Positions 764-9,984 of a stretch of 10,322 nt of DNA are shown piece by piece. The DNA lies in IMG/VR virus record IMGVR_UViG_2526164646_000015; one strand, written 5' to 3'. The notes under the pieces were generated by a model. That model had not been told where the DNA came from and did no database searches. It saw only the letters and a list, made by a program, of their open reading frames with translations. Numbering within the stretch: position 1 is the stretch's first letter; each line of letters starts with the position of its first letter. A program made the position numbers and the translations under genes. The DNA is from a virus (Duplodnaviria; Heunggongvirae; Uroviricota; Caudoviricetes).

Positions 764-818
764 GGTAATGCTGCCAACTTACTGATTTAGTGTATGATGG
801 TGATTTTAAGGTGCTTGC

Positions 819-1070
819 GTGGCTTCCATTTCCATCAGATGTCCTTCCTGCTCCGCTACTGAAGGCGTGGTGCGTAACGGCAAAAGCACTGCCGGACATC
901 AGCGCAATCTCTGCTCTCATTGCCGTAAAACATGGCAACTACAGTTCACTTACACCGCCTCTCAGCCCGGTACGCACCAGAAAATCATTGATATGGCCAT
1001 GAATGGCGTCGGATGTCGCGCCAGTGCACGCATTATGGGCTTGGCCTCAACACGGTTTTACGTCACTTAA
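819..1070 (+). pseudogene. insA: IS1 insA, C-terminus altered by an apparent 1-nt deletion
   Basis: Translation [73 protein letters not shown] follows canonical InsA, then diverges ([10 protein letters not shown], canonical ..[18 protein letters not shown]). ATGGGCTTGGCC here versus remembered ATGGGCGTTGGCC implies loss of one G. GTG start at 819. Confidence 0.6.
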
Positions 1071-1515
1071 AAAACTCAGGCCGCAGTCGGTAACCTCGCG
1101 CATACAACCGGGCAGTGATGTGATTGTCTGCGCTGAAATGGACGAACATTGGGGCTACGTCGGTGCTAAATCACGTCAGCGCTGGCTGTTTTACGCGTAT
1201 GACAGGATACGGAGGACGGTTGTGGCGCACGTCTTCGGTGAACGCACTCTGGCCACACTGGAGCGTCTTCTGAGCCTGCTGTCGGCCTTTGAGGTCGTGG
1301 TATGGATGACGGATGGCTGGCCGCTGTATGAATCACGCCTGAAGGGAAAGCTGCACGTTATCAGCAAGCGTTACACTCAGCGCATTGAGCGACATAATCT
1401 GAATCTGAGACAACATCTGGCAAGGCTGGTACGGAAGTCACTGTCGTTCTCAAAATCGGTGGAGCTGCATGACAAGGTCATCGGGCATTATCTGAACATA
1501 AAACACTATCAGTAA
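1003..1515 (+). CDS. insB: IS1 InsB (transposase catalytic portion; normally expressed as InsAB' fusion)
   Basis: 170-aa ORF ..[132 protein letters not shown] is near-identical to remembered IS1 InsB. Confidence 0.85.
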
Positions 1516-1530
1516 GTTGGAGTCATTACC

Positions 1531-2454
1531 CAGGAGTCGCTGAAAAATACGCGTTAATCGAACAATGGCGACAACAATTTCCCATTGAAGCGATGTGTCA
1601 GGTATTTGGTGTATCCAGGAGCGGTTATTACAACTGGGTACAGCATGAACCCTCAGACAGAAAACAAAGTGATGAGCGGCTAAAACTGGAGATTAAGGTG
1701 GCACATATCCGCACTCGCGAAACATATGGAACCCGGCGGCTCCAGACGGAGCTGGCAGAGAATGGCATCATCGTTGGTCGTGACCGACTGGCACGTCTTC
1801 GTAAGGAGCTGAGGCTACGCTGTAAGCAGAAACGCAAGTTCAGAGCAACTACGAACCCGAACCACAATCTGCCAGTTGCGCCAAATCTGCTGAACCAGAC
1901 GTTCGCTCCTACAGCACCAAATCAGGTCTGGGTGGCGGACCTGACGTATGTTGCCACACAGGAGGGATGGTTGTACCTCGCTGGCATCAAAGATGTTTAT
2001 ACGTGCGAAATTGTCGGCTACGCCATGGGAGAGCGCATGACAAAAGAGCTGACAGGTAAAGCCCTGTTTATGGCGCTCAGGAGCCAGCGCCCACCTGCCG
2101 GGCTAATCCACCACTCTGATCGAGGTTCACAGTACTGCGCATACGATTACCGGGTCATACAGGAGCAGTCTGGTCTGAAAACATCAATGTCGCGTAAAGG
2201 TAACTGTTACGACAACGCTCCGATGGAAAGCTTCTGGGGAACGCTGAAAAATGAGAGCCTGAGCCACTATCGTTTTAATAACCGGGATGAAGCCATCTCA
2301 GTAATACGGGAATACATTGAGATTTTCTACAATCGTCAGCGTCGTCACTCTCGTCTGGGGAATATCTCCCCGGCAGCCTTCAGGGAAAAATATCATCAGA
2401 TGGCTGCTTAAAAAAAGAACAAATGGTAGTGTCCGCTATTGCCAGTACACCTCA
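1531..2454 (+). mobile_element. IS600-like (IS3 family) element, 5'-truncated copy lacking about 340 bp including nearly all of orfA
   Basis: 1531-2454 is the reverse complement of the inner 924 bp of the second copy (9123-10046) wherever spot-checked (both junction regions and the orfB start); orfB translations are identical. Homology starts immediately after the IS1 right end and stops at ..GTACACCTCA (2454), a typical IS3-family CA terminus. Confidence 0.85.
1593..2411 (+). CDS. IS600-like orfB transposase (DDE integrase-core domain), IS3 family
   Basis: 272-aa ORF with IS3-family OrfB hallmarks (..WVADLTYV..GWLYLAGIKDVYTCEIVGYAMG..HHSDRGSQYCAYDY..GNCYDNAPMESFWGTLKNE..) and identical to the ORF at 9166..9984 (-). 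orfA, needed for the normal OrfAB frameshift fusion, is missing upstream. Confidence 0.85.
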   Translation: MCQVFGVSRSGYYNWVQHEPSDRKQSDERLKLEIKVAHIRTRETYGTRRLQTELAENGIIVGRDRLARLRKELRLRCKQKRKFRATTNPNHNLPVAPNLLNQTFAPTAPNQVWVADLTYVATQEGWLYLAGIKDVYTCEIVGYAMGERMTKELTGKALFMALRSQRPPAGLIHHSDRGSQYCAYDYRVIQEQSGLKTSMSRKGNCYDNAPMESFWGTLKNESLSHYRFNNRDEAISVIREYIEIFYNRQRRHSRLGNISPAAFREKYHQMAA

Positions 2455-2700
2455 CTGACATGCTAAAGCAAAAAATAGATGAATAAGTTGAGTTGTGCAT
2501 ATGTAGCCTGACCGTCACAAAGTATATGGTGTCTGTACCAGTAAGATGATGGCCGGACTCTTTAAAAAAGAGCTGACCTGCACAATACAGGATGGACTTA
2601 GCAATGGCTGCTCCTGGCACAAAGCGGACAGTGATCACCGTTCTTACGACTACTTTCTGACTTCCTTCGTGACTTGCCCTAAGCATGTTGTAGTGCGATA

Positions 2701-2726
2701 CTTGTAATGACATTTGTAATTACAAG
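2701..2726. promoter_or_regulatory. relO-type operator (TTGTAAT / ATTACAA repeats) in the relB promoter region
   Basis: CTTGTAATGACATTTGTAATTACAAG sits 11 bp upstream of the relB start; it contains direct and inverted TTGTAAT hexads, consistent with the known RelB-RelE operator architecture. Confidence 0.6.
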
Positions 2727-2737
2727 AGGTGTAAGAC

Positions 2738-2977
2738 ATGGGTAGCATTAACCTGCGTATTGACGATGAACTTAAAGCGCGTTCTTACGCCGCGCTTGAA
2801 AAAATGGGTGTAACTCCTTCTGAAGCGCTTCGTCTCATGCTCGAGTATATCGCTGACAATGAACGCTTGCCGTTCAAACAGACACTCCTGAGTGATGAAG
2901 ATGCTGAACTTGTGGAGATAGTGAAAGAACGGCTTCGTAATCCTAAGCCAGTACGTGTGACGCTGGATGAACTCTGA
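2738..2977 (+). CDS. relB: RelB antitoxin
   Basis: 79-aa product MGSINLRIDDELKARSYA..LEK.GVTPSEALRL.LEYIADNERLPFKQTLLSDEDAELVEIVKERLRNPKPVRVTLDEL is near-identical to E. coli K-12 RelB as I recall it; stop overlaps the relE start (TGATG). Confidence 0.95.
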   Translation: MGSINLRIDDELKARSYAALEKMGVTPSEALRLMLEYIADNERLPFKQTLLSDEDAELVEIVKERLRNPKPVRVTLDEL

Positions 2978-3264
2978 TGGCGTATTTTCTGGATTTTGAC
3001 GAGCGGGCACTAAAGGAATGGCGAAAGCTGGGCTCGACGGTACGTGAACAGTTGAAAAAGAAGCTGGTTGAAGTACTTGAGTCACCCCGGATTGAAGCAA
3101 ACAAGCTCCGTGGTATGCCTGATTGTTACAAGATTAAGCTCCGGTCTTCAGGCTATCGCCTTGTATACCAGGTTATAGACGAGAAAGTTGTCGTTTTCGT
3201 GATTTCTGTTGGGAAAAGAGAACGCTCGGAAGTATATAGCGAGGCGGTCAAACGCATTCTCTGA
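2977..3264 (+). CDS. relE: RelE mRNA-interferase toxin
   Basis: 95-aa product MAYFLDFDERALKEWRKLGSTVREQLKKKLVEVLESPRIEANKLRGMPDCYKIKLRSSGYRLVYQVIDEKVVVFVISVGKRERSEVYSEAVKRIL matches K-12 RelE; translationally coupled to relB. Confidence 0.95.
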   Translation: MAYFLDFDERALKEWRKLGSTVREQLKKKLVEVLESPRIEANKLRGMPDCYKIKLRSSGYRLVYQVIDEKVVVFVISVGKRERSEVYSEAVKRIL

Positions 3265-3335
3265 ACCAAAGCATGACATCTCTGTTTCGCACCGAAGGTG
3301 ACACTTCTGCTTTGCGTTGACAGGAGAAGCAGGCT

Positions 3336-3491
3336 ATGAAGCAGCAAAAGGCGATGTTAATCGCCCTGATCGTCATCTGTTTAACCGTCATAGTGACGGC
3401 ACTGGTAACGAGGAAAGACCTCTGCGAGGTACGAATCCGAACCGGCCAGACGGAGGTCGCTGTCTTCACAGCTTACGAACCTGAGGAGTAA
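3336..3491 (+). CDS. hokD: HokD (RelF) Hok-family small membrane toxin
   Basis: Not in the ORF track (below length cutoff). ATG at 3336, TAA at 3489-3491; translation MKQQKAMLIALIVICLTVIVTALVTRKDLCEVRIRTGQTEVAVFTAYEPEE (51 aa) matches HokD/RelF of K-12 Qin from memory. Confidence 0.9.
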   Translation: MKQQKAMLIALIVICLTVIVTALVTRKDLCEVRIRTGQTEVAVFTAYEPEE

Positions 3492-3558
3492 GAGACCCGG
3501 CGAGTGAGAAATCCCTCGCCACCTCTGATGTGGCAGGCATCCTCAACGCACCCGCACT

Positions 3559-3590
3559 AAACCCGCTTCGGCGGGTTTTTGTTTTTATTT
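3559..3590 (+). terminator. Rho-independent terminator downstream of relB-relE-hokD
   Basis: AAACCCGC-TTCG-GCGGGTTTTTGTTTTTATTTT: 5-6 bp GC stem, tetraloop, long T tract on the + strand. Confidence 0.7.
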
Positions 3591-3708
3591 TCAACGCATT
3601 TGAAGTTCTGGATGGTGCCGGAATAGAATCAAAAATACTTAAGTAGCGCGCAGGGATAAAAGGGATGGACCCCGAACAGGGGAGTGCTACTTATCTGGAA
3701 GGATTCTG

Positions 3709-3960
3709 ATGATGAACATCGAAGAACTGCGTAAAATTTTTTGTGAAGATGGCCTCTATGCTGTGTGCGTTGAAAATGGAAATATTGTTAGTCATTACCG
3801 CATTGTGTGTTTGCAAAAAAATGGGGCTGCGTTAATTAATTTTGTGGATGCCCGAGTGACGGACGGATTTATCTTGCGCGACGGTGAGTTTGTCACTTCA
3901 TTACAGGCATTGAAAGAGATCGGAATAAAAGCTGGCTTTTCTGCTTTTTCAGAAGAATAA
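3709..3960 (+). CDS. rem: Rem (small Qin-prophage protein of unknown function)
   Basis: 83-aa ORF MMNIEELRKIFCEDGLYAVCVENG.. has the length and position (just after hokD) of K-12 rem and matches my recollection of it; function unknown. Confidence 0.75.
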   Translation: MMNIEELRKIFCEDGLYAVCVENGNIVSHYRIVCLQKNGAALINFVDARVTDGFILRDGEFVTSLQALKEIGIKAGFSAFSEE

Positions 3961-4026
3961 ACTCATCTACAATCTTGCGCGGGGCTGAACTCCCGCTGAG
4001 TAACACCGTGCCACCGGAGAAAACCG

Positions 4027-4227
4027 ATGGCACGCAACGCAAAATATTACAATCATGATAATTCGACCGTTCTTGCCCACACGCACGAGCGGTATTCTCA
4101 CGCATTTAAGTCAGACTGGTACCAGCATCCCTCATGCACTGAAGAACAGGCCGAATGGCTTATTCAGTGTTACCGCAGGCGCGGATGCGAGGTTAAAAAA
4201 GCCCTTAGCCTCGACTACCGTCACTAG
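4027..4227 (+). CDS. Hypothetical small protein (66 aa), Cys/His-containing, unknown function
   Basis: ORF with a well-placed Shine-Dalgarno (CCGGAGAAAACCG-ATG) between rem and ydfU; no family recognised. Confidence 0.45.
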   Translation: MARNAKYYNHDNSTVLAHTHERYSHAFKSDWYQHPSCTEEQAEWLIQCYRRRGCEVKKALSLDYRH

Positions 4228-4306
4228 ATAATCTCCGTCAGGCTCCCTTACTCCGAACAGCCACCGCGTCCGTCCCGCACATTCCAGCAACGGATCTGGA
4301 GGTAAC

Positions 4307-5356
4307 GTGCGGGTATTACTTCGACCTGTTCTGGTTCCGGAACTCGGGCTGGTGGTCCTTAAGCCCGGTCGTGAATCCATGCCGGTATTCCACAATACCC
4401 GGGTACTGGTGGAGCCGGAACCGAAAAGCATGCGTAATCTGCCGTCCGGGGTCGTTCCTGCCGTTCGCCAGCCGCTAGTGGAAGACAAAACATTGCTGCC
4501 GTTTTTCAGTAACGCACGGGTGATTCGTGCTGCTGGTGGTGCTGGCGCATTGTCTGACTGGCTGTTGCGCCATATTAAATCCTGCCAGTGGCCACACGGC
4601 GATTATCATCACAGCGAAACCGTCATTCACCGTTATGGTACCGGCGCAATGGTATTGTGCTGGCACTGCGACAACCAGCTGCGTGACCAGACATCCGAAT
4701 CACTCGAGCAACTTGCTCATCAAAACCTGTCAGCATGGATGATTGACGTCATCGGTCACGCAATAAGCGGTACGCAGGAGCGTGAATTATCTCTAGCTGA
4801 ATTATCCTGGTGGGCGGTCCGCAATCAGGTGGCGGACGCGCTACCGGAAGCGGTATTACGTCGTTCGCTGGGGTTGCGTGCGGAAAAAATCCGCTCAATG
4901 TACCGTGAAAGCGACATCGTACCGGGAGAGCAGACCGCCACCAGCATACTGAAACAGCGCACAAAAAATCTTGCGCCGCTGCCTCACGCCCACCAGCAAC
5001 AGAACCCACAACAGGAAAAGACGGTGGTCAGCATTGCCGTTGATCCTGAGTCTCCGGAATCTTTCATGAAACGACCTAAACGTCGCCGCTGGGTTAACGA
5101 GAAATACAAACGCTGGGTGAAGACACAGCCGTGTGCGTGTTGTGGTAAGCCAGCCGACGATCCCCATCACCTGATTGGTCATGGTCAGGGCGGAATGGGG
5201 ACCAAATCTCACGATATTTTCACGCTACCGCTGTGTCGGGAGCATCACAACGAGCTTCATGCGGATCCTCTGGCGTTCGAAGAAAAGCATGGTTCTCAGG
5301 TTGATTTAATTTTTCGTTTTCTTGATCACGCCTTTGCAACTGGCGTGCTTGGGTAA
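4307..5356 (+). CDS. ydfU: YdfU-like DUF968 prophage protein with C-terminal Cys/His (HNH-like) motif
   Basis: 349-aa ORF, same length as K-12 YdfU; GTG start at 4307 preceded by GGAGGTAAC; C-terminus ..CACCGKPADDPHHLIGHGQGG..LPLCREHHNELH is the Cys/His cluster typical of DUF968 proteins in lambdoid nin regions. Confidence 0.85.
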   Translation: MRVLLRPVLVPELGLVVLKPGRESMPVFHNTRVLVEPEPKSMRNLPSGVVPAVRQPLVEDKTLLPFFSNARVIRAAGGAGALSDWLLRHIKSCQWPHGDYHHSETVIHRYGTGAMVLCWHCDNQLRDQTSESLEQLAHQNLSAWMIDVIGHAISGTQERELSLAELSWWAVRNQVADALPEAVLRRSLGLRAEKIRSMYRESDIVPGEQTATSILKQRTKNLAPLPHAHQQQNPQQEKTVVSIAVDPESPESFMKRPKRRRWVNEKYKRWVKTQPCACCGKPADDPHHLIGHGQGGMGTKSHDIFTLPLCREHHNELHADPLAFEEKHGSQVDLIFRFLDHAFATGVLG

Positions 5357-5368
5357 AAGAGGTGACTG

Positions 5369-5725
5369 ATGCTCATAGATTTGGTTTTACCTTACCCGCC
5401 GACGGTGAACACTTACTGGCGACGCCGTGGCAGCACATATTTTATCTCGGAGGAGGGAAAGCGTTATCGCCGGGCTGTGGCGCTTATTGTTCGCCAGCAG
5501 CGGCTGAAATTAAGCCTGTCCGGAAGGCTGGCGATAAAGGTGATTGCAGAGCCACCGGATAAGCGTCGTCGCGACCTGGACAATATCCTGAAAGCACCGC
5601 TGGATGCGCTGACGCATGCGGGAGTGTTAATGGACGATGAGCAGTTTGATGAAATCAATATCGTTCGTGGTCAGCCAGTATCTGGTGGACGTCTGGGGGT
5701 GAAGATTTACCCCATAATGCATTAA
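5369..5725 (+). CDS. rusA: RusA-family Holliday-junction resolvase
   Basis: 118-aa ORF with AGAGG RBS; motifs PDKRRRDLDN, DALTHAGVLMDDEQ and GGRL align with E. coli RusA (PDRRRRDLDN, DALTKAGFWLDDAQ, GGRL), including the catalytic acidic residues. Confidence 0.85.
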   Translation: MLIDLVLPYPPTVNTYWRRRGSTYFISEEGKRYRRAVALIVRQQRLKLSLSGRLAIKVIAEPPDKRRRDLDNILKAPLDALTHAGVLMDDEQFDEINIVRGQPVSGGRLGVKIYPIMH

Positions 5726-5739
5726 GAGCAGGTCAAAAA

Positions 5740-6561
5740 ATGAAACTGGAAGATTTACCGAAATACTACTCCCCAAAATCCCCTGGCCTGACCGATGCAT
5801 CGGCCTCAACGTCAAAAGATGCGCTGAGTATCACTGATGTGATGGCCGCGCAGGGCATGACACAGAATCGGGCTGAGATGGGTTTTTCTGCGTTCCTGGG
5901 GAAAATGGGCATCAGTATGAATGACAGGGCGCGGGCAACAGAATTACTGGCAGATTATGCACTCAGTCGGTGCGATCGTGTGGCGGCGTTGAGAAAACTT
6001 CCGGCAGAAATAAAACCGGTAGTGATGCGCATTATGGCTTCGTACGCTTTTGAGGATTATGCCCGCAGCGCAGCGAGTAAAAAGCAGTGCCCTTGTTGCT
6101 ATGGGGAAAAATTTATTGAAAGCATAGTTTTTACAAACAAGATCCAGTATCCGGATGGTAAGCCGCCGGTATGGGCAAAGTGTACGAAAGGTGTGTATCC
6201 GTCTTACTGGGAAGAATGGAAAAAAGTCAGGGAGGTGGTAAAAGTTGCCTGTCCGGAGTGTGGCGGAAAGGGTGAGGTTTCCACCGCCTGTAAGGATTGC
6301 CGTGGGCGTGGTGTCGCCATTCATCGTGAAGAGTCGGTAAAACGTGGTATGCCTGTTATCAGAGACTGCCAGCGTTGTGGTGGTCGTGGCTATGAAAGAC
6401 TACCATCAACGGAGGCATTTAATGCTATATGCGAGGTGACAAACCAGATAACACGCGCGTCATGGGAAAAAACAGTTAAGAAATTTTATGATGCGCTGGT
6501 GACCCGGTTTGATATTGAAGAAGCATGGGCTGAGCGGCAGTTAAAAAAGGTAACTAGGTAA
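5740..6561 (+). CDS. Late-gene antiterminator Q-like protein (QuuQ/phage-82 class) with four DnaJ-type CxxCxG(xG) zinc-finger repeats
   Basis: Position (after ydfU/rusA, immediately before a PR'-like promoter, tR'-like terminator and tRNA genes) is that of Q in lambdoid phages; N-terminus MKLEDLPKYYSPKSP resembles what I recall of K-12 QuuQ; repeats CPCCYGEK, CPECGGKG, CKDCRGRG, CQRCGGRG are read directly from the translation. Family assignment is from memory, not a search. Confidence 0.65.
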   Translation: MKLEDLPKYYSPKSPGLTDASASTSKDALSITDVMAAQGMTQNRAEMGFSAFLGKMGISMNDRARATELLADYALSRCDRVAALRKLPAEIKPVVMRIMASYAFEDYARSAASKKQCPCCYGEKFIESIVFTNKIQYPDGKPPVWAKCTKGVYPSYWEEWKKVREVVKVACPECGGKGEVSTACKDCRGRGVAIHREESVKRGMPVIRDCQRCGGRGYERLPSTEAFNAICEVTNQITRASWEKTVKKFYDALVTRFDIEEAWAERQLKKVTR

Positions 6562-6566
6562 CAAGG

Positions 6567-6595
6567 TTGATTTTTCCGGAATCTGTGGTAAATTC
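6567..6595 (+). promoter_or_regulatory. PR'-like late promoter (sigma70 -35 TTGATT, extended -10 TGgTAAATT)
   Basis: TTGATT (6567-6572), 16-nt spacer, TGgTAAATT (6586-6594), 5 bp after the Q stop codon; matches the position of PR' in lambdoid phages. Confidence 0.55.
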
Positions 6596-6642
6596 GTCAT
6601 GATGATGGGCGTTTTATGCCTGGCGTTAGAAGAGTTTCTACA

Positions 6643-6668
6643 ACCCGCCGCTGAGCGGGTTTTTTTAT
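6643..6668 (+). terminator. tR'-like intrinsic terminator (target of Q antitermination)
   Basis: ACCCGC-CGCTGA-GCGGGTTTTTTTATTG: 6-bp GC stem plus T7 tract about 50-70 nt downstream of the PR'-like promoter, giving a short 6S-like leader transcript. Confidence 0.7.
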
Positions 6669-6705
6669 TGCGAAATTAATTACGGACCGTTATTATTCTG
6701 CTCCC

Positions 6706-6781
6706 GGCCCTTTAGCTCAGTGGTGAGAGCGAGCGACTCATAATCGCCAGGTCGCTGGTTCAAATCCAGCAAGGGCCACCA
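6706..6781 (+). tRNA. tRNA-Ile2 (anticodon CAU, lysidine-type, ileX/ileZ-like)
   Basis: 76-nt cloverleaf: acceptor GGCCCTT/AAGGGCC, D arm GCTC..GAGC, anticodon loop CU-CAT-AA, T arm GCTGG-TTCAAAT-CCAGC, terminal ACCA. Close to remembered E. coli ileX, hence Ile2 rather than Met. Confidence 0.85.
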
Positions 6782-6882
6782 TCACAAACCGCCATTAGCT
6801 TATCAGGAAGAGCAGACGACACGATAACAGGGTTGTTGGTGCGGGGGGCGGGTCCCCGATGGCGGTCCATTATCGGTATTCA

Positions 6883-6959
6883 GCGTTGTTAGCTCAGCCG
6901 GACAGAGCAATTGCCTTCTAAGCAATCGGTCACTGGTTCGAATCCAGTACAGCGCGCCA
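6883..6959 (+). tRNA. tRNA-Arg (anticodon UCU, reads AGA; argU/argO-like)
   Basis: 77-nt cloverleaf: acceptor GCGTTGT/ACAGCGC (one G-U), D arm GCTC..GAGC, anticodon stem ATTGC/GCAAT with loop CT-TCT-AA, T arm ACTGG-TTCGAAT-CCAGT, discriminator G, CCA encoded. Confidence 0.85.
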
Positions 6960-7069
6960 TATTCATTCTTCCAGATTCCTTCCGGCAGAGCCTTATACTG
7001 AAATATACCTGGCTCAGGATATTGTTGAAAATATTATATATTTGTCAAAAATAAAAGTTCTGTTAAGTA

Positions 7070-7423
7070 TTGATTGAGTATTTGTTATACGGTCTAATGG
7101 TTTTTTCAGCATTAAGTATTTATCATTCATATGGTGTGGGTAGAGTGAATATTGATGAGGCGTCGGGGTGTTTCATCCTTAGGCAGCGTATTGATATAGT
7201 CAATGCAGCACGAGCAAAGGCCTTCAGCCGTTTGACAGTTTTGTTCTGTACTCCTGATCGTCTTTCGGGAAGAGACGTTATTATTCTGAATAGTGATGCT
7301 ATACAGAGGGTTTGCGATGAGTTCATGGTTGCTAATTCAGAATTATTTGCTCTTGTTCAGGAGTACAACAGAATAGCCAGGACCTGTGGTATGGATGAAC
7401 TTCGGATTACTCATCTGGGGTAG
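7070..7423 (+). CDS. Hypothetical protein (117 aa), hydrophobic N-terminus, unknown function; cargo (moron) ORF
   Basis: ORF from the track; TTG start at 7070 or ATG at 7097, neither with a convincing Shine-Dalgarno. Contains 3 AGA, 3 AGG and 3 AUA codons (6 of 11 Arg, 3 of 11 Ile). No family recognised. Confidence 0.35.
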   Translation: MIEYLLYGLMVFSALSIYHSYGVGRVNIDEASGCFILRQRIDIVNAARAKAFSRLTVLFCTPDRLSGRDVIILNSDAIQRVCDEFMVANSELFALVQEYNRIARTCGMDELRITHLG

Positions 7424-7503
7424 ATACATATCTGGATTATCACCTGTTACGGTAAAAAGTGATTGCTTACTGTTTTTGTTAATGGCATTGCAGCAGCCGG
7501 ATA

Positions 7504-7590
7504 ATGTCAGTGCCGGCTGACGGTGTGCTGGTGGCGGGTGTGGTGGTTGTTGCTTTCCCGTTGCTGAAAAAGAAAACGCCAGACTGTTAG
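7504..7590 (+). CDS. Candidate small hydrophobic peptide (28 aa: MSVPADGVLVAGVVVVAFPLLKKKTPDC), speculative
   Basis: Manually read ORF; ATG lies in the loop of a CAGCCGG..CCGGCTG hairpin; predicted single TM helix followed by KKK. Weak RBS; no homology recognised. Could be a chance ORF. Confidence 0.2.
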   Translation: MSVPADGVLVAGVVVVAFPLLKKKTPDC

Positions 7591-7815
7591 CCGGGTATCA
7601 GTTAGCGGGAGAAATTTTTAAATACTTCACAATTCAGGCGGTTGACTGTTGTCTGGTTTGCGGGGAGTTTGTTAAAAGAAACTGGCATGGTGAATCCCCC
7701 TGTGCGGAGGGGCAATCAGCGAGTAGGTATATGGGATAATCGCGGATTCAGGTGCTGGTACTGAATTCACCGGGAGGCACCCGGCACCATGGAATGGCAC
7801 ATAGCGCCACTCTCC

Positions 7816-7850
7816 AGCCCCTCTCCGGAGGGGCTGTTTATATTGATTTT
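7816..7850 (+). terminator. Intrinsic terminator (perfect 8-bp stem AGCCCCTC-TCCG-GAGGGGCT plus T-rich tail)
   Basis: Perfect palindrome 7816-7835 followed by GTTTATATTGATTTT; lies between the convergent + strand cargo ORFs and the stop codon (7871) of the - strand ORF. Confidence 0.6.
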
Positions 7851-7870
7851 GTCAGATGTGAGTAAACTCC

Positions 7871-8206
7871 TTATGGACTTTGTTGTTTTAGTCCATAAGG
7901 ACATATTTGCAGAGTGCAACGGTTATTAAAGCATTCATTCAATACGTTATCTGTATTTGTAGGGCATTCCTGGCTGTTTTTGATTAAATTCCAGAATGTT
8001 TTATTGAATGGTACTACGTTGTAAATGGTTACAGGTAGCACTTTGTTATTGAGCATGATGCCTGTGTGAGTCAGTGTAAATATACTTTCAGGAGGTAAGA
8101 AAGCATCCGATTGATACCAGATTATTAATTTTATTTTACTCCATATGACTGAAAAAGATATTCCGCATGATGGCTGGATAACTGTATCAATCACAATCCA
8201 CTTCAT
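7871..8206 (-). CDS. Hypothetical protein (111 aa), Trp/Cys-rich, unknown function; cargo (moron) ORF
   Basis: ATG at 8206 preceded on the - strand by AAGGA at 7-nt spacing; a TATACT -10-like element lies further upstream in very AT-rich DNA. No family recognised. Confidence 0.4.
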
Positions 8207-8450
8207 TTAGTTTCCTTGTTTATGCCTTGCTGGTGATGTTCTGAAAAGTATAAATGATATTTTTGAATTAAACCATAGAGCAGAATTATTTTTCTGATGT
8301 TGTTTATTGTTTATTTAAATGCAGGGTGGTTTATATCTCGTCTTGTAGTTTATCCATGCATATCTGCTTGATAATCAGGTTTTTATTTAAGGTATGGTTT
8401 TGTGTTTTTTCTGTATTACATGTCAGGTATTTTAAAGAATTATTTTTCAG

Positions 8451-8654
8451 ATGTTGGAAAGAACCATGGCATTTAAACACTATGATGTTGTCAGGGCGGC
8501 GCCGCCGTCAGATCTTGCGGAAAAGCTGACACATAAACTGAAAGAGGGCTGGCAGCCGTTTGGTAGTCCGGTGGCCATAACCCCTTATACCCTGATGCAG
8601 GCGATTGCAGCAGAAGGTGATGTGGTGGTCAGTGGTGCAACTGAGCCGGAGTGA
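8451..8654 (+). CDS. Small conserved-looking prophage protein (62-67 aa), unknown function; possibly DUF1737-like
   Basis: ORF MLERTMAFKHYDVVRAAPPSDLAEKLTHKLKEGWQPFGSPV..; the more likely start is ATG 8466 (MAFKHYDVV). The YDVV..LAEK..LKEGWQP.G pattern resembles small phage proteins I recall near lysis cassettes, but I cannot confirm the family without a search. Confidence 0.5.
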   Translation: MLERTMAFKHYDVVRAAPPSDLAEKLTHKLKEGWQPFGSPVAITPYTLMQAIAAEGDVVVSGATEPE

Positions 8655-8897
8655 TACTACGTCATCGTACTGGCCCGGCATTCCAGGCCATAAAAGACAG
8701 TCTGGCAGTGGGACTAAATGCACTGACGCTGACGGATATTACCAAAAATGCAACGTATGGCGTTGAGATAGAAAGTCTGGTGCTGGAGATAAATGCACCG
8801 GCATCATCATAAAAAGTGAGCCAGTCAAATGGAAGGTATCGTTAAACTCACCGGTAGTGTCAGTGGGTCGTCTGAGACGCTTGCATGAGTTATCAGA

Positions 8898-8928
8898 GCC
8901 ATCAGTAGTTAACTGGTGGCTTTTTTAT
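8898..8928 (+). terminator. Intrinsic terminator immediately upstream of the holin start
   Basis: GCCATCAG-TAGTTAA-CTGGTGGC (8-bp stem, one G-U) followed by TTTTTTATTGTTG; ends about 35 nt before the holin ATG. Confidence 0.6.
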
Positions 8929-8961
8929 TGTTGTCAGCTTCCGGATAACGGGAGACGGGGT

Positions 8962-9122
8962 ATGGACCAGATGGAAAAAATCACAACAGGTGTGTCATAC
9001 ACCACGTCAGCGGTGGGAACGGGCTACTGGTTCCTGCAGTTGCTGGACAGGGTTTCCCCGTCTCAGTGGGCGGCAATAGGCGTGCTGGGGAGTCTGCTGT
9101 TTGGGCTGCTGACATATCTGAC
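8962..9122 (+). pseudogene. Phage-21-type pinholin (S21-like class II holin) gene, 3' end removed by IS600 insertion
   Basis: ATG at 8962 with GGAG RBS; [54 protein letters not shown] aligns with remembered phage 21 S ([60 protein letters not shown]..). The frame enters IS600 at 9123 and the last 6 codons (EVYWQ*) are IS-encoded, so the charged C-terminal tail is lost. The tracked ORF start at 8857 is an upstream in-frame extension, not the real start. Confidence 0.75.
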
Positions 9123-9165
9123 TGAGGTGTACTGGCAATAGCGGACACTACCATTTGTTCTTTTT

Positions 9166-9984
9166 TTAAGCAGCCATCTGATGATATTTTTCCCTGAAGG
9201 CTGCCGGGGAGATATTCCCCAGACGAGAGTGACGACGCTGACGATTGTAGAAAATCTCAATGTATTCCCGTATTACTGAGATGGCTTCATCCCGGTTATT
9301 AAAACGATAGTGGCTCAGGCTCTCATTTTTCAGCGTTCCCCAGAAGCTTTCCATCGGAGCGTTGTCGTAACAGTTACCTTTACGCGACATTGATGTTTTC
9401 AGACCAGACTGCTCCTGTATGACCCGGTAATCGTATGCGCAGTACTGTGAACCTCGATCAGAGTGGTGGATTAGCCCGGCAGGTGGGCGCTGGCTCCTGA
9501 GCGCCATAAACAGGGCTTTACCTGTCAGCTCTTTTGTCATGCGCTCTCCCATGGCGTAGCCGACAATTTCGCACGTATAAACATCTTTGATGCCAGCGAG
9601 GTACAACCATCCCTCCTGTGTGGCAACATACGTCAGGTCCGCCACCCAGACCTGATTTGGTGCTGTAGGAGCGAACGTCTGGTTCAGCAGATTTGGCGCA
9701 ACTGGCAGATTGTGGTTCGGGTTCGTAGTCGCTCTGAACTTGCGTTTCTGCTTACAGCGTAGCCTCAGCTCCTTACGAAGACGTGCCAGTCGGTCACGAC
9801 CAACGATGATGCCATTCTCTGCCAGCTCCGTCTGGAGCCGCCGGGTTCCATATGTTTCGCGAGTGCGGATATGTGCCACCTTAATCTCCAGTTTTAGCCG
9901 CTCATCACTTTGTTTTCTGTCTGAGGGTTCATGCTGTACCCAGTTGTAATAACCGCTCCTGGATACACCAAATACCTGACACAT
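9166..9984 (-). CDS. IS600-like orfB transposase (DDE), IS3 family
   Basis: 272-aa ORF identical in translation to 1593..2411 (+). Confidence 0.9.
   Translation of the reverse strand: MCQVFGVSRSGYYNWVQHEPSDRKQSDERLKLEIKVAHIRTRETYGTRRLQTELAENGIIVGRDRLARLRKELRLRCKQKRKFRATTNPNHNLPVAPNLLNQTFAPTAPNQVWVADLTYVATQEGWLYLAGIKDVYTCEIVGYAMGERMTKELTGKALFMALRSQRPPAGLIHHSDRGSQYCAYDYRVIQEQSGLKTSMSRKGNCYDNAPMESFWGTLKNESLSHYRFNNRDEAISVIREYIEIFYNRQRRHSRLGNISPAAFREKYHQMAA

Follow-up and report, generated by a model that had tools for sequence, protein, structure and literature searches.

What does a defective prophage of Shigella flexneri, the host here, carry between its Q/tRNA region and its holin gene? In the window, by which we mean the whole stretch of 10,322 nucleotides that was analysed, this interval had been described from the sequence as an AT-rich cassette of about 1.9 kb that matched nothing known and might form an undescribed system in the slot held by stx in Shiga toxin phages. 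We find that it is a patchwork of accessory genes of lambdoid prophages, chiefly iraL, which is common and has been annotated before.

The interval between the Q/tRNA region and the holin gene

The placement of the interval between Q with its tRNAs and the holin gene was confirmed by Pfam, a terminator scan and the tRNA coordinates, and all four ORFs of the original prediction are present (Table 1). The downstream boundary of the slot is a holin gene interrupted beyond codon 54, where an IS3-family element has inserted at ~9124, and because the holin is truncated by this element the prophage is defective. The remnant is flanked on both sides by inverted IS copies. On 839 contigs the exact 59-aa holin product appears under the name 'Lysis protein S [Shigella flexneri]'.

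The AT-rich blocks were borne out: GC content is 0.48 across the whole window but drops to 0.31 at 6960-7144, to 0.345 within the 111-aa gene and to 0.29 at 8207-8465. The interval is enriched in terminator-like sites (6 versus 1.6 expected) but not in promoter-like ones (7 versus 5.4 expected). At least one gene, iraL, has a promoter of its own. The terminator-like hairpin at 8895-8933 lies 30 to 40 nt 5' of the holin start codon and is identical in the CFT073 copy. A further 67-aa ORF (8326-8529) was judged spurious; it lies in a spacer of 29 to 31% GC and has no Pfam or NCBIfam family match. Enteropathogenic E. coli (EPEC) prophages carry a PasA/PasC-type sRNA in the interval before the holin. 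A search for such an sRNA between the nanS-p remnant and the holin gene, on both strands, returned no significant similarity, and AgvB and AsxR gave no match at E<=1.

Table 1. Features of the interval and its flanks (positions in the window)
Feature	Position	Strand	Description
Q	5740-6561		Pfam Antiterm; upstream of interval
tR'-like terminator	6642-6661		Terminator scan; upstream of interval
tRNAs	6706-6781, 6883-6959		Upstream of interval
117-aa ORF	7070-7423	+	TTG start
orf92	7145-7423	+	92 aa, GTG start, inside the 117-aa ORF; phrog_2873; conserved protein-coding gene
DUF3927 gene	7459-7590	+	PHROG 'TciB-like'; small hydrophobic protein; inactivated by TAA at 7480-7482
28-aa ORF	7504-7590	+	
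STnc100 sRNA gene	7656-7845	+	Rfam RF02076 (cmscan); full length, 190 nt
iraL	7871-8206	-	Intact, 111 aa; RssB anti-adaptor, IraM/IraL family
iraL 5' UTR and promoter region	8207-8320	-	TSS 8239; -10 TATACT at 8247-8252
67-aa ORF	8451-8654	+	
nanS-p/yjhS (phage sialate O-acetylesterase), N-terminal remnant	8466-8687	+	Pfam PF08410, 62 bits
53-aa ORF	8651-8812	+	Spans deletion junction and nanS-p C-terminal tail (homology 8705-8797)
Intrinsic-terminator-like hairpin and T-run	8895-8933	+	12-bp stem, then TTTATTGTTG
Class II holin gene, truncated	8962-9141	+	Pfam PF04971 (Phage_holin_2_1), 83 bits, profile positions 1-54 of 64
IS orfB	9166-9984	-	

The 111-aa ORF corresponds to iraL

By its sequence, the 111-aa ORF is IraL, which published work describes as stabilising RpoS, the stress sigma factor. 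The product is 100% identical to WP_000871291.1 of uropathogenic E. coli CFT073 and matches NCBIfam NF007393 over residues 1 to 110 with 162 bits against a curated cut-off of 121. A scan of the current Pfam-A gave no match for IraL, unlike a precomputed table, which lists PF11183 (PmrD). IraL was characterised in 2014 in CFT073 as c1429 (Hryckowian et al., mBio, PMC4045071), where it binds RssB and lengthens the half-life of RpoS. The same study found that iraL is significantly enriched in Shigella and that its deletion in S. sonnei leads to lower RpoS. We infer that IraL is still expressed and active in the strain analysed here. The view that the segment encodes a host-fitness function thus holds for at least iraL, the one module with a demonstrated function; the notion that it is undescribed found no support, its central gene having been published in 2014.

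Among the closest known relatives is IraM of E. coli K-12 (b1160), which belongs to the same NCBIfam family and has been solved in complex with RssB (PDB 8TWD). Anti-adaptors of this family contact RssB via three residue clusters of a PmrD-like N-terminal domain. IraL is 62% identical to IraM over 107 aa free of gaps, and chain A of 8TWD matches residues 1 to 78 in a sequence comparison (E = 9e-32). At the published RssB-contact residues, 11 of 15 positions are identical and 3 are conservative: all five of cluster I are identical, cluster II has three of five identical and two conservative replacements, Pro66 is conserved, and cluster III differs (H63N, I64V), H63N being the one position of the 15 that is neither identical nor conservative. 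Presumably, IraL acts as IraM does, by occluding the 4-5-5 face and the linker of RssB. IraM is a paralog of IraL and not its ortholog. Mg2+ starvation induces IraM through PhoP; IraL, by contrast, is active in logarithmic phase without stress and has a reported difference in RssB contact; the K-12 iraM gene also lacks an adjacent STnc100.

The iraL promoter carries a deletion in the predicted -35 element

The published 5' RACE sequence of iraL, ACATCACCAGCAAGGCATAAACAAGGAAACCA (PMC4045071), agrees with the minus strand in 31 of 32 nt, counted from 8239. The -10 element is intact, and single substitutions relative to CFT073 occur at -1 and in the 5' UTR. The predicted -35 element has lost 1 nt, reading TTTA-A in place of the TTTACA of CFT073. 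Since this deletion destroys TTTACA, expression of iraL may be lower or absent here. The same deletion was seen in every S. flexneri locus examined and in some E. coli; E. coli whose iraL is intact commonly carry this -35 variant. The 2014 paper had noted -35 variants of iraL and left their activity open (PMC4045071).

Control of iraL by PhoP, as for iraM, was considered and rejected. A PhoP-box-like motif with one mismatch lies at 8301-8317 (-62 to -78), one hit against 0.17 expected, but at least one such motif arose in 33 of 200 shuffles and it is therefore not counted as evidence.

An STnc100 sRNA gene converges on iraL

An sRNA gene that the original prediction overlooked lies 25 nt from iraL and converges with it. 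This STnc100 gene reached 124.2 bits in cmscan, above the gathering score of 47, and its match (E = 4e-28) spans model positions 1-206. The conserved hairpins of the covariance model are present, as is an intrinsic terminator in which a hairpin at 7815-7836 is followed by a T-run. The transcript likely spans ~7685 to 7845, and published STnc100 qPCR primers (PMC12370729) match exactly at 7687-7706 and 7760-7779. STnc100 is presumably expressed in this strain. Published work on STnc100 consists of detection and predictions only. A 42-aa minus-strand ORF, annotated by PGAP as a 'hypothetical pseudogene' (~7672-7800), is antisense to STnc100 and is probably spurious.

Among the PasD sRNAs of EPEC, PasD2 shares the 5' core GCAUGGUGAAUCC...GGAGGGGC with this STnc100, starting at 7685, and occupies the same context, 3' of a DUF3927 gene and 5' of nanS-p. 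The 3' half of STnc100 could not be aligned with PasD2, and this includes the PasD seed region. PasD sRNAs, which are relatives of STnc100, bind Hfq.

Remnants of the DUF3927 and nanS-p genes

Two of the four ORFs first listed proved to be fragments of known genes. The 28-aa ORF, taken for a possible membrane peptide, does exist, but it is the C-terminal remainder of a 43-aa DUF3927 gene interrupted by a nonsense codon. In an alignment with MS6198, 042 and mEp460, the change GAA>TAA at codon 8 is found only in the window. Consistent with this, Pfam PF13064 matches with 53.5 bits over profile positions 26-53 only, and no intact ORF of ~43 to 52 aa spanning the whole domain was found; phrog_1470 also matches the gene. 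PGAP calls an intact 43-aa protein, WP_000562553.1, at the DUF3927 position. From its reading frame, the gene is a pseudogene in this strain. A literature search on 'TciB' found no relevant work.

Likewise, the ORF of 62 to 67 aa is present but is a fragment of nanS-p and not an independent gene. Its 62-aa DUF1737 domain stops at a TGG>TGA nonsense codon (8652-8654), while in-frame nanS-p homology runs on to ~8687, where a deletion begins. By tblastn, residues 1 to 74 of YjhS align to 8466-8687 at 86%, and residues 596 to 626 align to 8705-8797. On the phrog_143 profile of 634 positions, the N-terminal remnant covers positions 1-58 and the C-terminal tail positions 582-632. Compared with the NanS-p (YjhS) family of prophage 9-O-acetyl-sialate esterases, the DUF1737 N terminus is 86 to 90% identical and the C-terminal tail is recognisable. 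PGAP annotates the remnant as partial, lacking the C terminus. The spacing between the N- and C-terminal parts is 36 nt in 23 viral contigs versus ~1544 nt in the 14 with a full-length nanS-p. The 53-aa ORF across the junction is, on these alignments, a by-product of an internal nanS-p deletion of ~1.5 kb; its product is named 'YjhS [Shigella flexneri]' in source records. No single ORF of ~630 aa joins DUF1737 to the catalytic SASA/SGNH domain. With this domain deleted and a stop after residue 62, the remnant cannot be an esterase.

orf92 is a small conserved gene

The 117-aa ORF was also found, but the conserved coding sequence within it is the 92-aa orf92, starting at the GTG at 7145. Divergent homologs at 67 to 72% nucleotide identity keep the same 92-aa ORF with its start and stop; homologs were located in L006 (3026-3304; WP_001017777.1) and L007 (3071-3349). 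The dN/dS ratio is 0.26 in frame versus 0.8 to 1.25 out of frame, and third-position substitutions are in excess. orf92 is thus a real protein-coding gene under purifying selection, even though PGAP mostly leaves it uncalled.

A full-length match to PHROG 2873 (194.8 bits; residues 1 to 92 on profile positions 17-108) and a weaker one to phrog_4827 were obtained, and searches of Pfam, NCBIfam and PADLOC gave none. An AlphaFold2 (AF2) model with a pLDDT of 85 places helices at residues 3-35 and 50-81, so that orf92 is predicted to form a two-helix hairpin. Foldseek searches with this model against PDB and BFVD returned nothing at E<=0.001 and only generic helical hairpins, the best at E 0.32 to 0.38; a profile search of PDB sequences found no match. 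The family comprises 19 representative clusters in 1.8 billion proteins, all unannotated. A genome scan with a narrower alignment found orf92 only in E. coli, in one metagenome-assembled (MAG) contig, which is probably mis-binned, and in Citrobacter braakii, whose homolog occupies the same slot between tRNAs and holin. A promoter-like site at 7025-7052 does not stand out from chance expectation. orf92 is the only uncharacterised part of the segment.

Distribution and assortment of the modules

The 2-kb segment is ~99% identical in DNA sequence to the potB-island prophage of CFT073, with the same gene order, the same genes flanking iraL and the same location in the prophage late region. The window differs in its host and in the more advanced decay of the prophage (IS-cut holin gene, nonsense codon in DUF3927). 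The segment has already been annotated in RefSeq, where it appears as DUF3927, IraM-family anti-adapter, partial DUF1737 and hypothetical, and every ORF belongs to an existing Pfam, NCBIfam or PHROG family. The view that the segment matches nothing known is wrong. Among 5,426 complete E. coli genomes, 859 carry the segment at ≥80% coverage and 1,446 carry iraL with its promoter. Because the segment is a known, annotated patchwork, nothing in it is out of the ordinary except a small conserved protein, orf92.

The full cassette is present in 26 of 62 viral contigs. orf92 occurs together with DUF3927 and STnc100 in 60 of the 62; in 15, these three stand without iraL or nanS-p, and 14 have a full-length nanS-p. 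Thus the block of orf92, DUF3927 and STnc100, the block with iraL, and nanS-p in its full-length or deleted form assort independently among phages, contrary to the idea that the cassette travels as a unit.

Comparison with Stx2a phages clarified the relationship to stx. In Stx2_EH1910, for example, the order is Q, tRNAs, stx2AB, STnc100, iraM-like gene, nanS-p and holin gene. The window and these phages have in common, in the same order and downstream of Q and ileZ/arg tRNAs, STnc100, an iraM/iraL-like gene that points leftward, nanS-p and a gene for a class II holin. It differs in having orf92 and DUF3927 in place of stx, and in the internal deletion of nanS-p. The IraM-like protein of the Stx2a phages represents a third allele, which shares 72% identity with IraL and 66% with IraM. 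The window has the position of stxA/stxB downstream of Q and the ileZ/arg tRNAs; the toxin genes themselves are absent, and the ORFs match other families. The designation as an stx-equivalent slot is accordingly right as to position, but iraL, STnc100 and nanS-p are no alternative to stx, since in some Stx2a phages they lie directly 3' of stx2AB. A defence function was also considered and set aside: at E<=0.01, PADLOC-DB gave no match for orf92, DUF3927, IraL or the two nanS-p remnants.

Interpretation of the interval

We consider it very probable that known accessory modules of the late region ('morons') make up the interval as a mosaic, within a lambdoid, Qin-like prophage that is defective and IS-disrupted in S. 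flexneri. To this extent, the original prediction of horizontally acquired accessory cargo in a lambdoid late region was right. For orf92 and DUF3927, 'mosaic of morons' is a description of organisation and not of activity. Because iraL lies antisense to the late operon of the phage, it is not transcribed with that operon, contrary to what had been supposed. In the proposed mechanism, a sigma70-type promoter belonging to iraL would drive its leftward transcription. The 111-aa product would adopt the PmrD fold and bind the adaptor RssB, and RssB bound in this way would no longer deliver RpoS to ClpXP, resulting in higher RpoS during growth. STnc100 is a terminator-ended sRNA convergent with iraL, the same sRNA that lies 3' of stx2B in Stx2 phages. 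The upstream modules are orf92 and the gene for a DUF3927/TciB-like membrane peptide, here a pseudogene, and the downstream module is a dead nanS-p.

Of the other readings, the one that fares best would make orf92 the novel cargo: a small helical-hairpin effector, directed at the host and expressed from the late transcript or from a weak promoter of its own, with DUF3927 and STnc100 as its usual companions. We regard this as a tentative possibility. Purifying selection, the conserved position just 3' of the late-region tRNAs in E. coli, Shigella and Citrobacter, the linkage to DUF3927 and STnc100, the confident AF2 model and the lack of similarity to any characterised family in family, PDB and Foldseek searches speak for it. 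On the other hand, the family is tiny, PGAP usually makes no call, a helical hairpin says nothing on activity, and the promoter-like site is at chance level.

It is unlikely that the whole interval is functionally dead in this strain, as hitch-hiking debris in which the -35 deletion, together with silencing of the AT-rich promoter by an H-NS-type mechanism, keeps iraL off. The defective prophage with its IS-cut holin gene and inverted IS copies, the inactivation of DUF3927 and nanS-p, the fixation of the deletion in the predicted -35 in S. flexneri loci and the 29% GC of the promoter region would all fit such decay. Yet the iraL ORF has stayed intact, and 100% identical to the active allele, beside decayed neighbours, and the same -35 variant is often seen in E. 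coli that have an intact iraL. The enrichment of iraL in Shigella and the lower RpoS of the S. sonnei deletion mutant (PMC4045071) also count against it, as does an intact orf92 from a family under purifying selection.

More doubtful still is a linked reading in which orf92 is an undescribed small effector and, in addition, the convergent STnc100 and iraL form a regulatory unit, with Q-dependent late transcription or the sRNA itself modulating IraL. If true, such a unit would couple the state of the prophage, via RpoS proteolysis, to the general stress response of the host. Finally, that the ~1.9 kb is one undescribed multi-gene system for virulence, defence or envelope functions, expressed with the late operon in the stx slot, is extremely improbable and already largely refuted: it has the position, the AT-rich composition and the recurrence of the whole arrangement in viral contigs and E. 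coli genomes correct, but its parts (IraL, STnc100, DUF3927 and the nanS-p remnant) are individually known and assort independently, two of the genes are pseudogenes here, iraL is antisense to the late operon with its own mapped TSS, no PADLOC defence match was found, and the iraL/STnc100/nanS-p block co-occurs with stx2 and does not replace it.

Read as a mosaic, the cassette that looked temptingly unknown consists of iraL, a lysogenic-conversion gene already published as stabilising RpoS, amid a catalogued sRNA and gene wreckage. The small conserved family of orf92 is a modest lead and not a new system. The fixed -35 deletion may bear on the strength of iraL expression in the S. flexneri lineage. 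In this species iraL has stayed intact within a defective prophage whose genes for lysis and for the esterase have decayed, a pattern that fits selection for altered control of RpoS.

The interval encodes the anti-adaptor IraL

The window represents a lambdoid, Qin-like prophage that is defective. The original prediction placed the interval at 6960-8960 between Q and the tRNAs on one side and the holin gene on the other, and assigned it four open reading frames (ORFs); this location and all four ORFs were confirmed (table). The proposed AT-rich blocks also were evident, with a GC content of 0.29 to 0.35 at 6960-7144 and 7871-8465 compared with 0.48 for the whole window. Of the promoter/terminator architecture claimed for the interval, terminator-like sites were enriched (6 versus 1.6 expected), but promoter-like sites were not (7 versus 5.4).

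An IS3-family element at about 9124 cuts off the holin gene beyond codon 54; on 839 contigs, the identical truncated 59-aa product is named "Lysis protein S [Shigella flexneri]". Because this exact product is recorded from S. flexneri, we take that species to be the source of the window. The interrupting element carries one of two identical, inverted orfB copies (IS600-like), between which lies the prophage remnant. Homologs of the first tRNA in Escherichia coli prophages are labeled tRNA-Ile by PGAP (ileZ type, decoded after lysidine modification), and CFT073 has three tRNAs at this site versus two in the window.

Features of the window
Feature	Position	Strand	Basis or remark
IS1	about 800-1515		Adjoins left orfB, beside fimbrial-like gene remnant
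IS3-family orfB, left	1593-2411	+
Prophage remnant	2412-9165
relB/relE, hokD, DUF968 gene, rusA, Q			Gene order upstream of interval
Q	5740-6561		Pfam Antiterm
tR'-like terminator	6642-6661		After Q; terminator scan
tRNA	6706-6781		ARAGORN, tRNA-Met (CAT)
Second tRNA	6883-6959
117-aa ORF	7070-7423	+	Contains orf92
orf92	7145-7423	+	92 aa, GTG start
DUF3927 nonsense codon	7480-7482		GAA>TAA
28-aa ORF	7504-7590	+	DUF3927 tail
STnc100	7656-7845	+	Rfam RF02076
STnc100 terminator	7815-7836		Terminator scan
111-aa ORF	7871-8206	-	iraL
62- to 67-aa ORF	8451-8654	+	nanS-p N terminus
NanS-p/YjhS residues 1-74	8466-8687		TGG>TGA at 8652-8654
NanS-p/YjhS residues ~596-626	8705-8797		Within 53-aa ORF
Class II holin gene	Start 8962		Downstream of interval
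IS3-family orfB, right	9166-9984	-	Truncates holin gene

The view that this DNA matched nothing known did not hold. Of 5,426 complete E. coli genomes, 859 gave Megablast matches covering ≥80% of the segment (best identity, 99.4%), and RefSeq labels the products of the segment as a DUF3927 protein, an IraM-family anti-adapter, a partial DUF1737 protein, a 53-aa hypothetical protein and a holin. Across 2 kb, the segment and the potB-island prophage of uropathogenic E. coli CFT073 are about 99% identical.

[quoted passage not shown] IraL retains 11 of the 15 IraM residues that were reported as RssB contacts (PMC10844676) and has conservative replacements at 3; H63N is a difference. A precomputed Pfam table assigned IraL to PF11183 (PmrD), in line with the report that IraM has a PmrD-like fold, whereas a current Pfam-A hmmscan returned no family at E ≤ 0.1; this mismatch is a difference of library versions or thresholds. 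CFT073 IraL binds RssB and extends the half-life of RpoS during log phase, iraL deletion lowers RpoS in CFT073 and Shigella sonnei, and Shigella is enriched for iraL (Hryckowian et al. 2014, PMC4045071). In later reports, iraL (c1429) was upregulated in a fur mutant and at 37 °C. IraL would be made from its own promoter, on the strand opposite the late operon, and would sequester RssB and shield RpoS from ClpXP. Such lysogenic conversion is the function supported for the interval, and the original prediction was right in its general view of the region as fitness cargo acquired horizontally.

Pseudogenes, STnc100 and orf92

Two of the predicted ORFs are fragments of known genes. The 28-aa ORF corresponds to the end of a DUF3927 gene of 43 aa (phrog_1470, "TciB-like") that carries a nonsense codon in the window, and the 62- to 67-aa ORF is the DUF1737 N terminus of the phage sialate esterase NanS-p/YjhS, of which about 1.5 kb is absent between the N- and C-terminal remnants. 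In viral contigs, this gap measures 36 nt where the gene is internally deleted and about 1544 nt where it is full length. The C-terminal remnant retains GAUAGAAAGU-CUGGUGCUGGA-GAUAAAUGCA verbatim at 8767-8797 (+), a motif that appears among the RIL-seq target sites of PasA, an sRNA of EPEC; no PasA/PasC gene was found in the window.

Overlooked in the original prediction was a full-length STnc100 sRNA (124 bits; gathering score, 47), convergent with iraL at a distance of 25 nt and exactly matched by the published STnc100 qPCR primers. STnc100 is reported to be a relative of the Hfq-binding PasD sRNAs, but the similarity of the window copy to PasD2 is confined to the 5' core. In Stx2 phages, STnc100 lies 75 nt 3' of stx2B, and elsewhere it also follows DUF3927. 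One prophage late region of E. coli O43 RM10042 (NZ_CP028122.1, 1668-1880 and 3639-4618) holds five copies, four in tandem between an orf92 homolog and nanS-p and one after a tolA-like moron. These copies and positions suggest that STnc100 is a boundary or 3'-end element that late-region morons reuse, and a likely site of recombination.

The 117-aa ORF contains a real gene, orf92. Two further E. coli prophages have homologs of 67 to 72% nucleotide identity (one annotated as WP_001017777.1) that retain the 92-aa ORF, GTG start and stop, and dN/dS was 0.26 in frame versus 0.8 to 1.25 in other frames. The family (phrog_2873) comprises 19 unannotated representative clusters among 1.8 billion proteins, and in Citrobacter braakii, too, a homolog has tRNAs on one side and a holin/endolysin pair on the other. 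AlphaFold2 modeled a two-helix hairpin (pLDDT, 85); fold and profile searches returned nothing specific, and a PADLOC search gave no matches. A 62%-identical homolog occurs on a 2.7-kb contig labeled "MAG: Bacillota bacterium" (JAEWMQ010000075.1), which is most likely part of an enterobacterial prophage that was mis-binned.

The cassette is a mosaic

The cassette does not travel as a unit. The similarity to phage mEp460 stops after the first 832 nt of the 2-kb segment (orf92, DUF3927 and most of STnc100), and vB_EcoS-640R1 shares only nucleotides 532 to 2001. Among 62 IMG/VR contigs with orf92 and enough downstream DNA, the arrangement was complete in 26; 15 had orf92-DUF3927-STnc100 without iraL or nanS-p, and 14 had full-length nanS-p. 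In EPEC E2348/69, iraL adjoins a full-length esterase followed by PasC, and a separate locus reads DUF3927-PasD2-esterase-PasA-holin. In one Stx2a phage, the order is stx2AB-STnc100-iraM-like-nanS-p-holin, so the iraL block is a neighbor of stx rather than a substitute. Instead of an uncharacterized, undescribed system, the interval comprises IraL, the sRNA STnc100, one selected protein and two pseudogenes; orf92 and the pairing of STnc100 with iraL are minor leads.

The iraL promoter varies among lineages

In the window, the CFT073 iraL 5'RACE sequence (PMC4045071) begins at 8239 on the minus strand, with 31 of its 32 nt matching. At 8301-8317 (+), 62 to 78 nt upstream of the iraL transcription start site, is a PhoP-box-like direct repeat, TGTTTATTGTTTATTTA; it is the sole match in the window and is kept in all iraL loci examined, but at least one match occurred in 33 of 200 shuffles. 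In the -35 region (8262-8275, minus strand), a 1-nt deletion takes out the C from the hexamer that reads TTTACA in CFT073, which makes the strength of iraL expression in the window uncertain. This TTTA-A variant is shared with all six S. flexneri iraL loci compared, MS6198 and ECMA0423; CFT073 and 042 have TTTACA, E2348/69 has TTTACAA, and phage 640R1 has TTTATA. This polymorphism could tune IraL, and hence RpoS levels, lineage by lineage.
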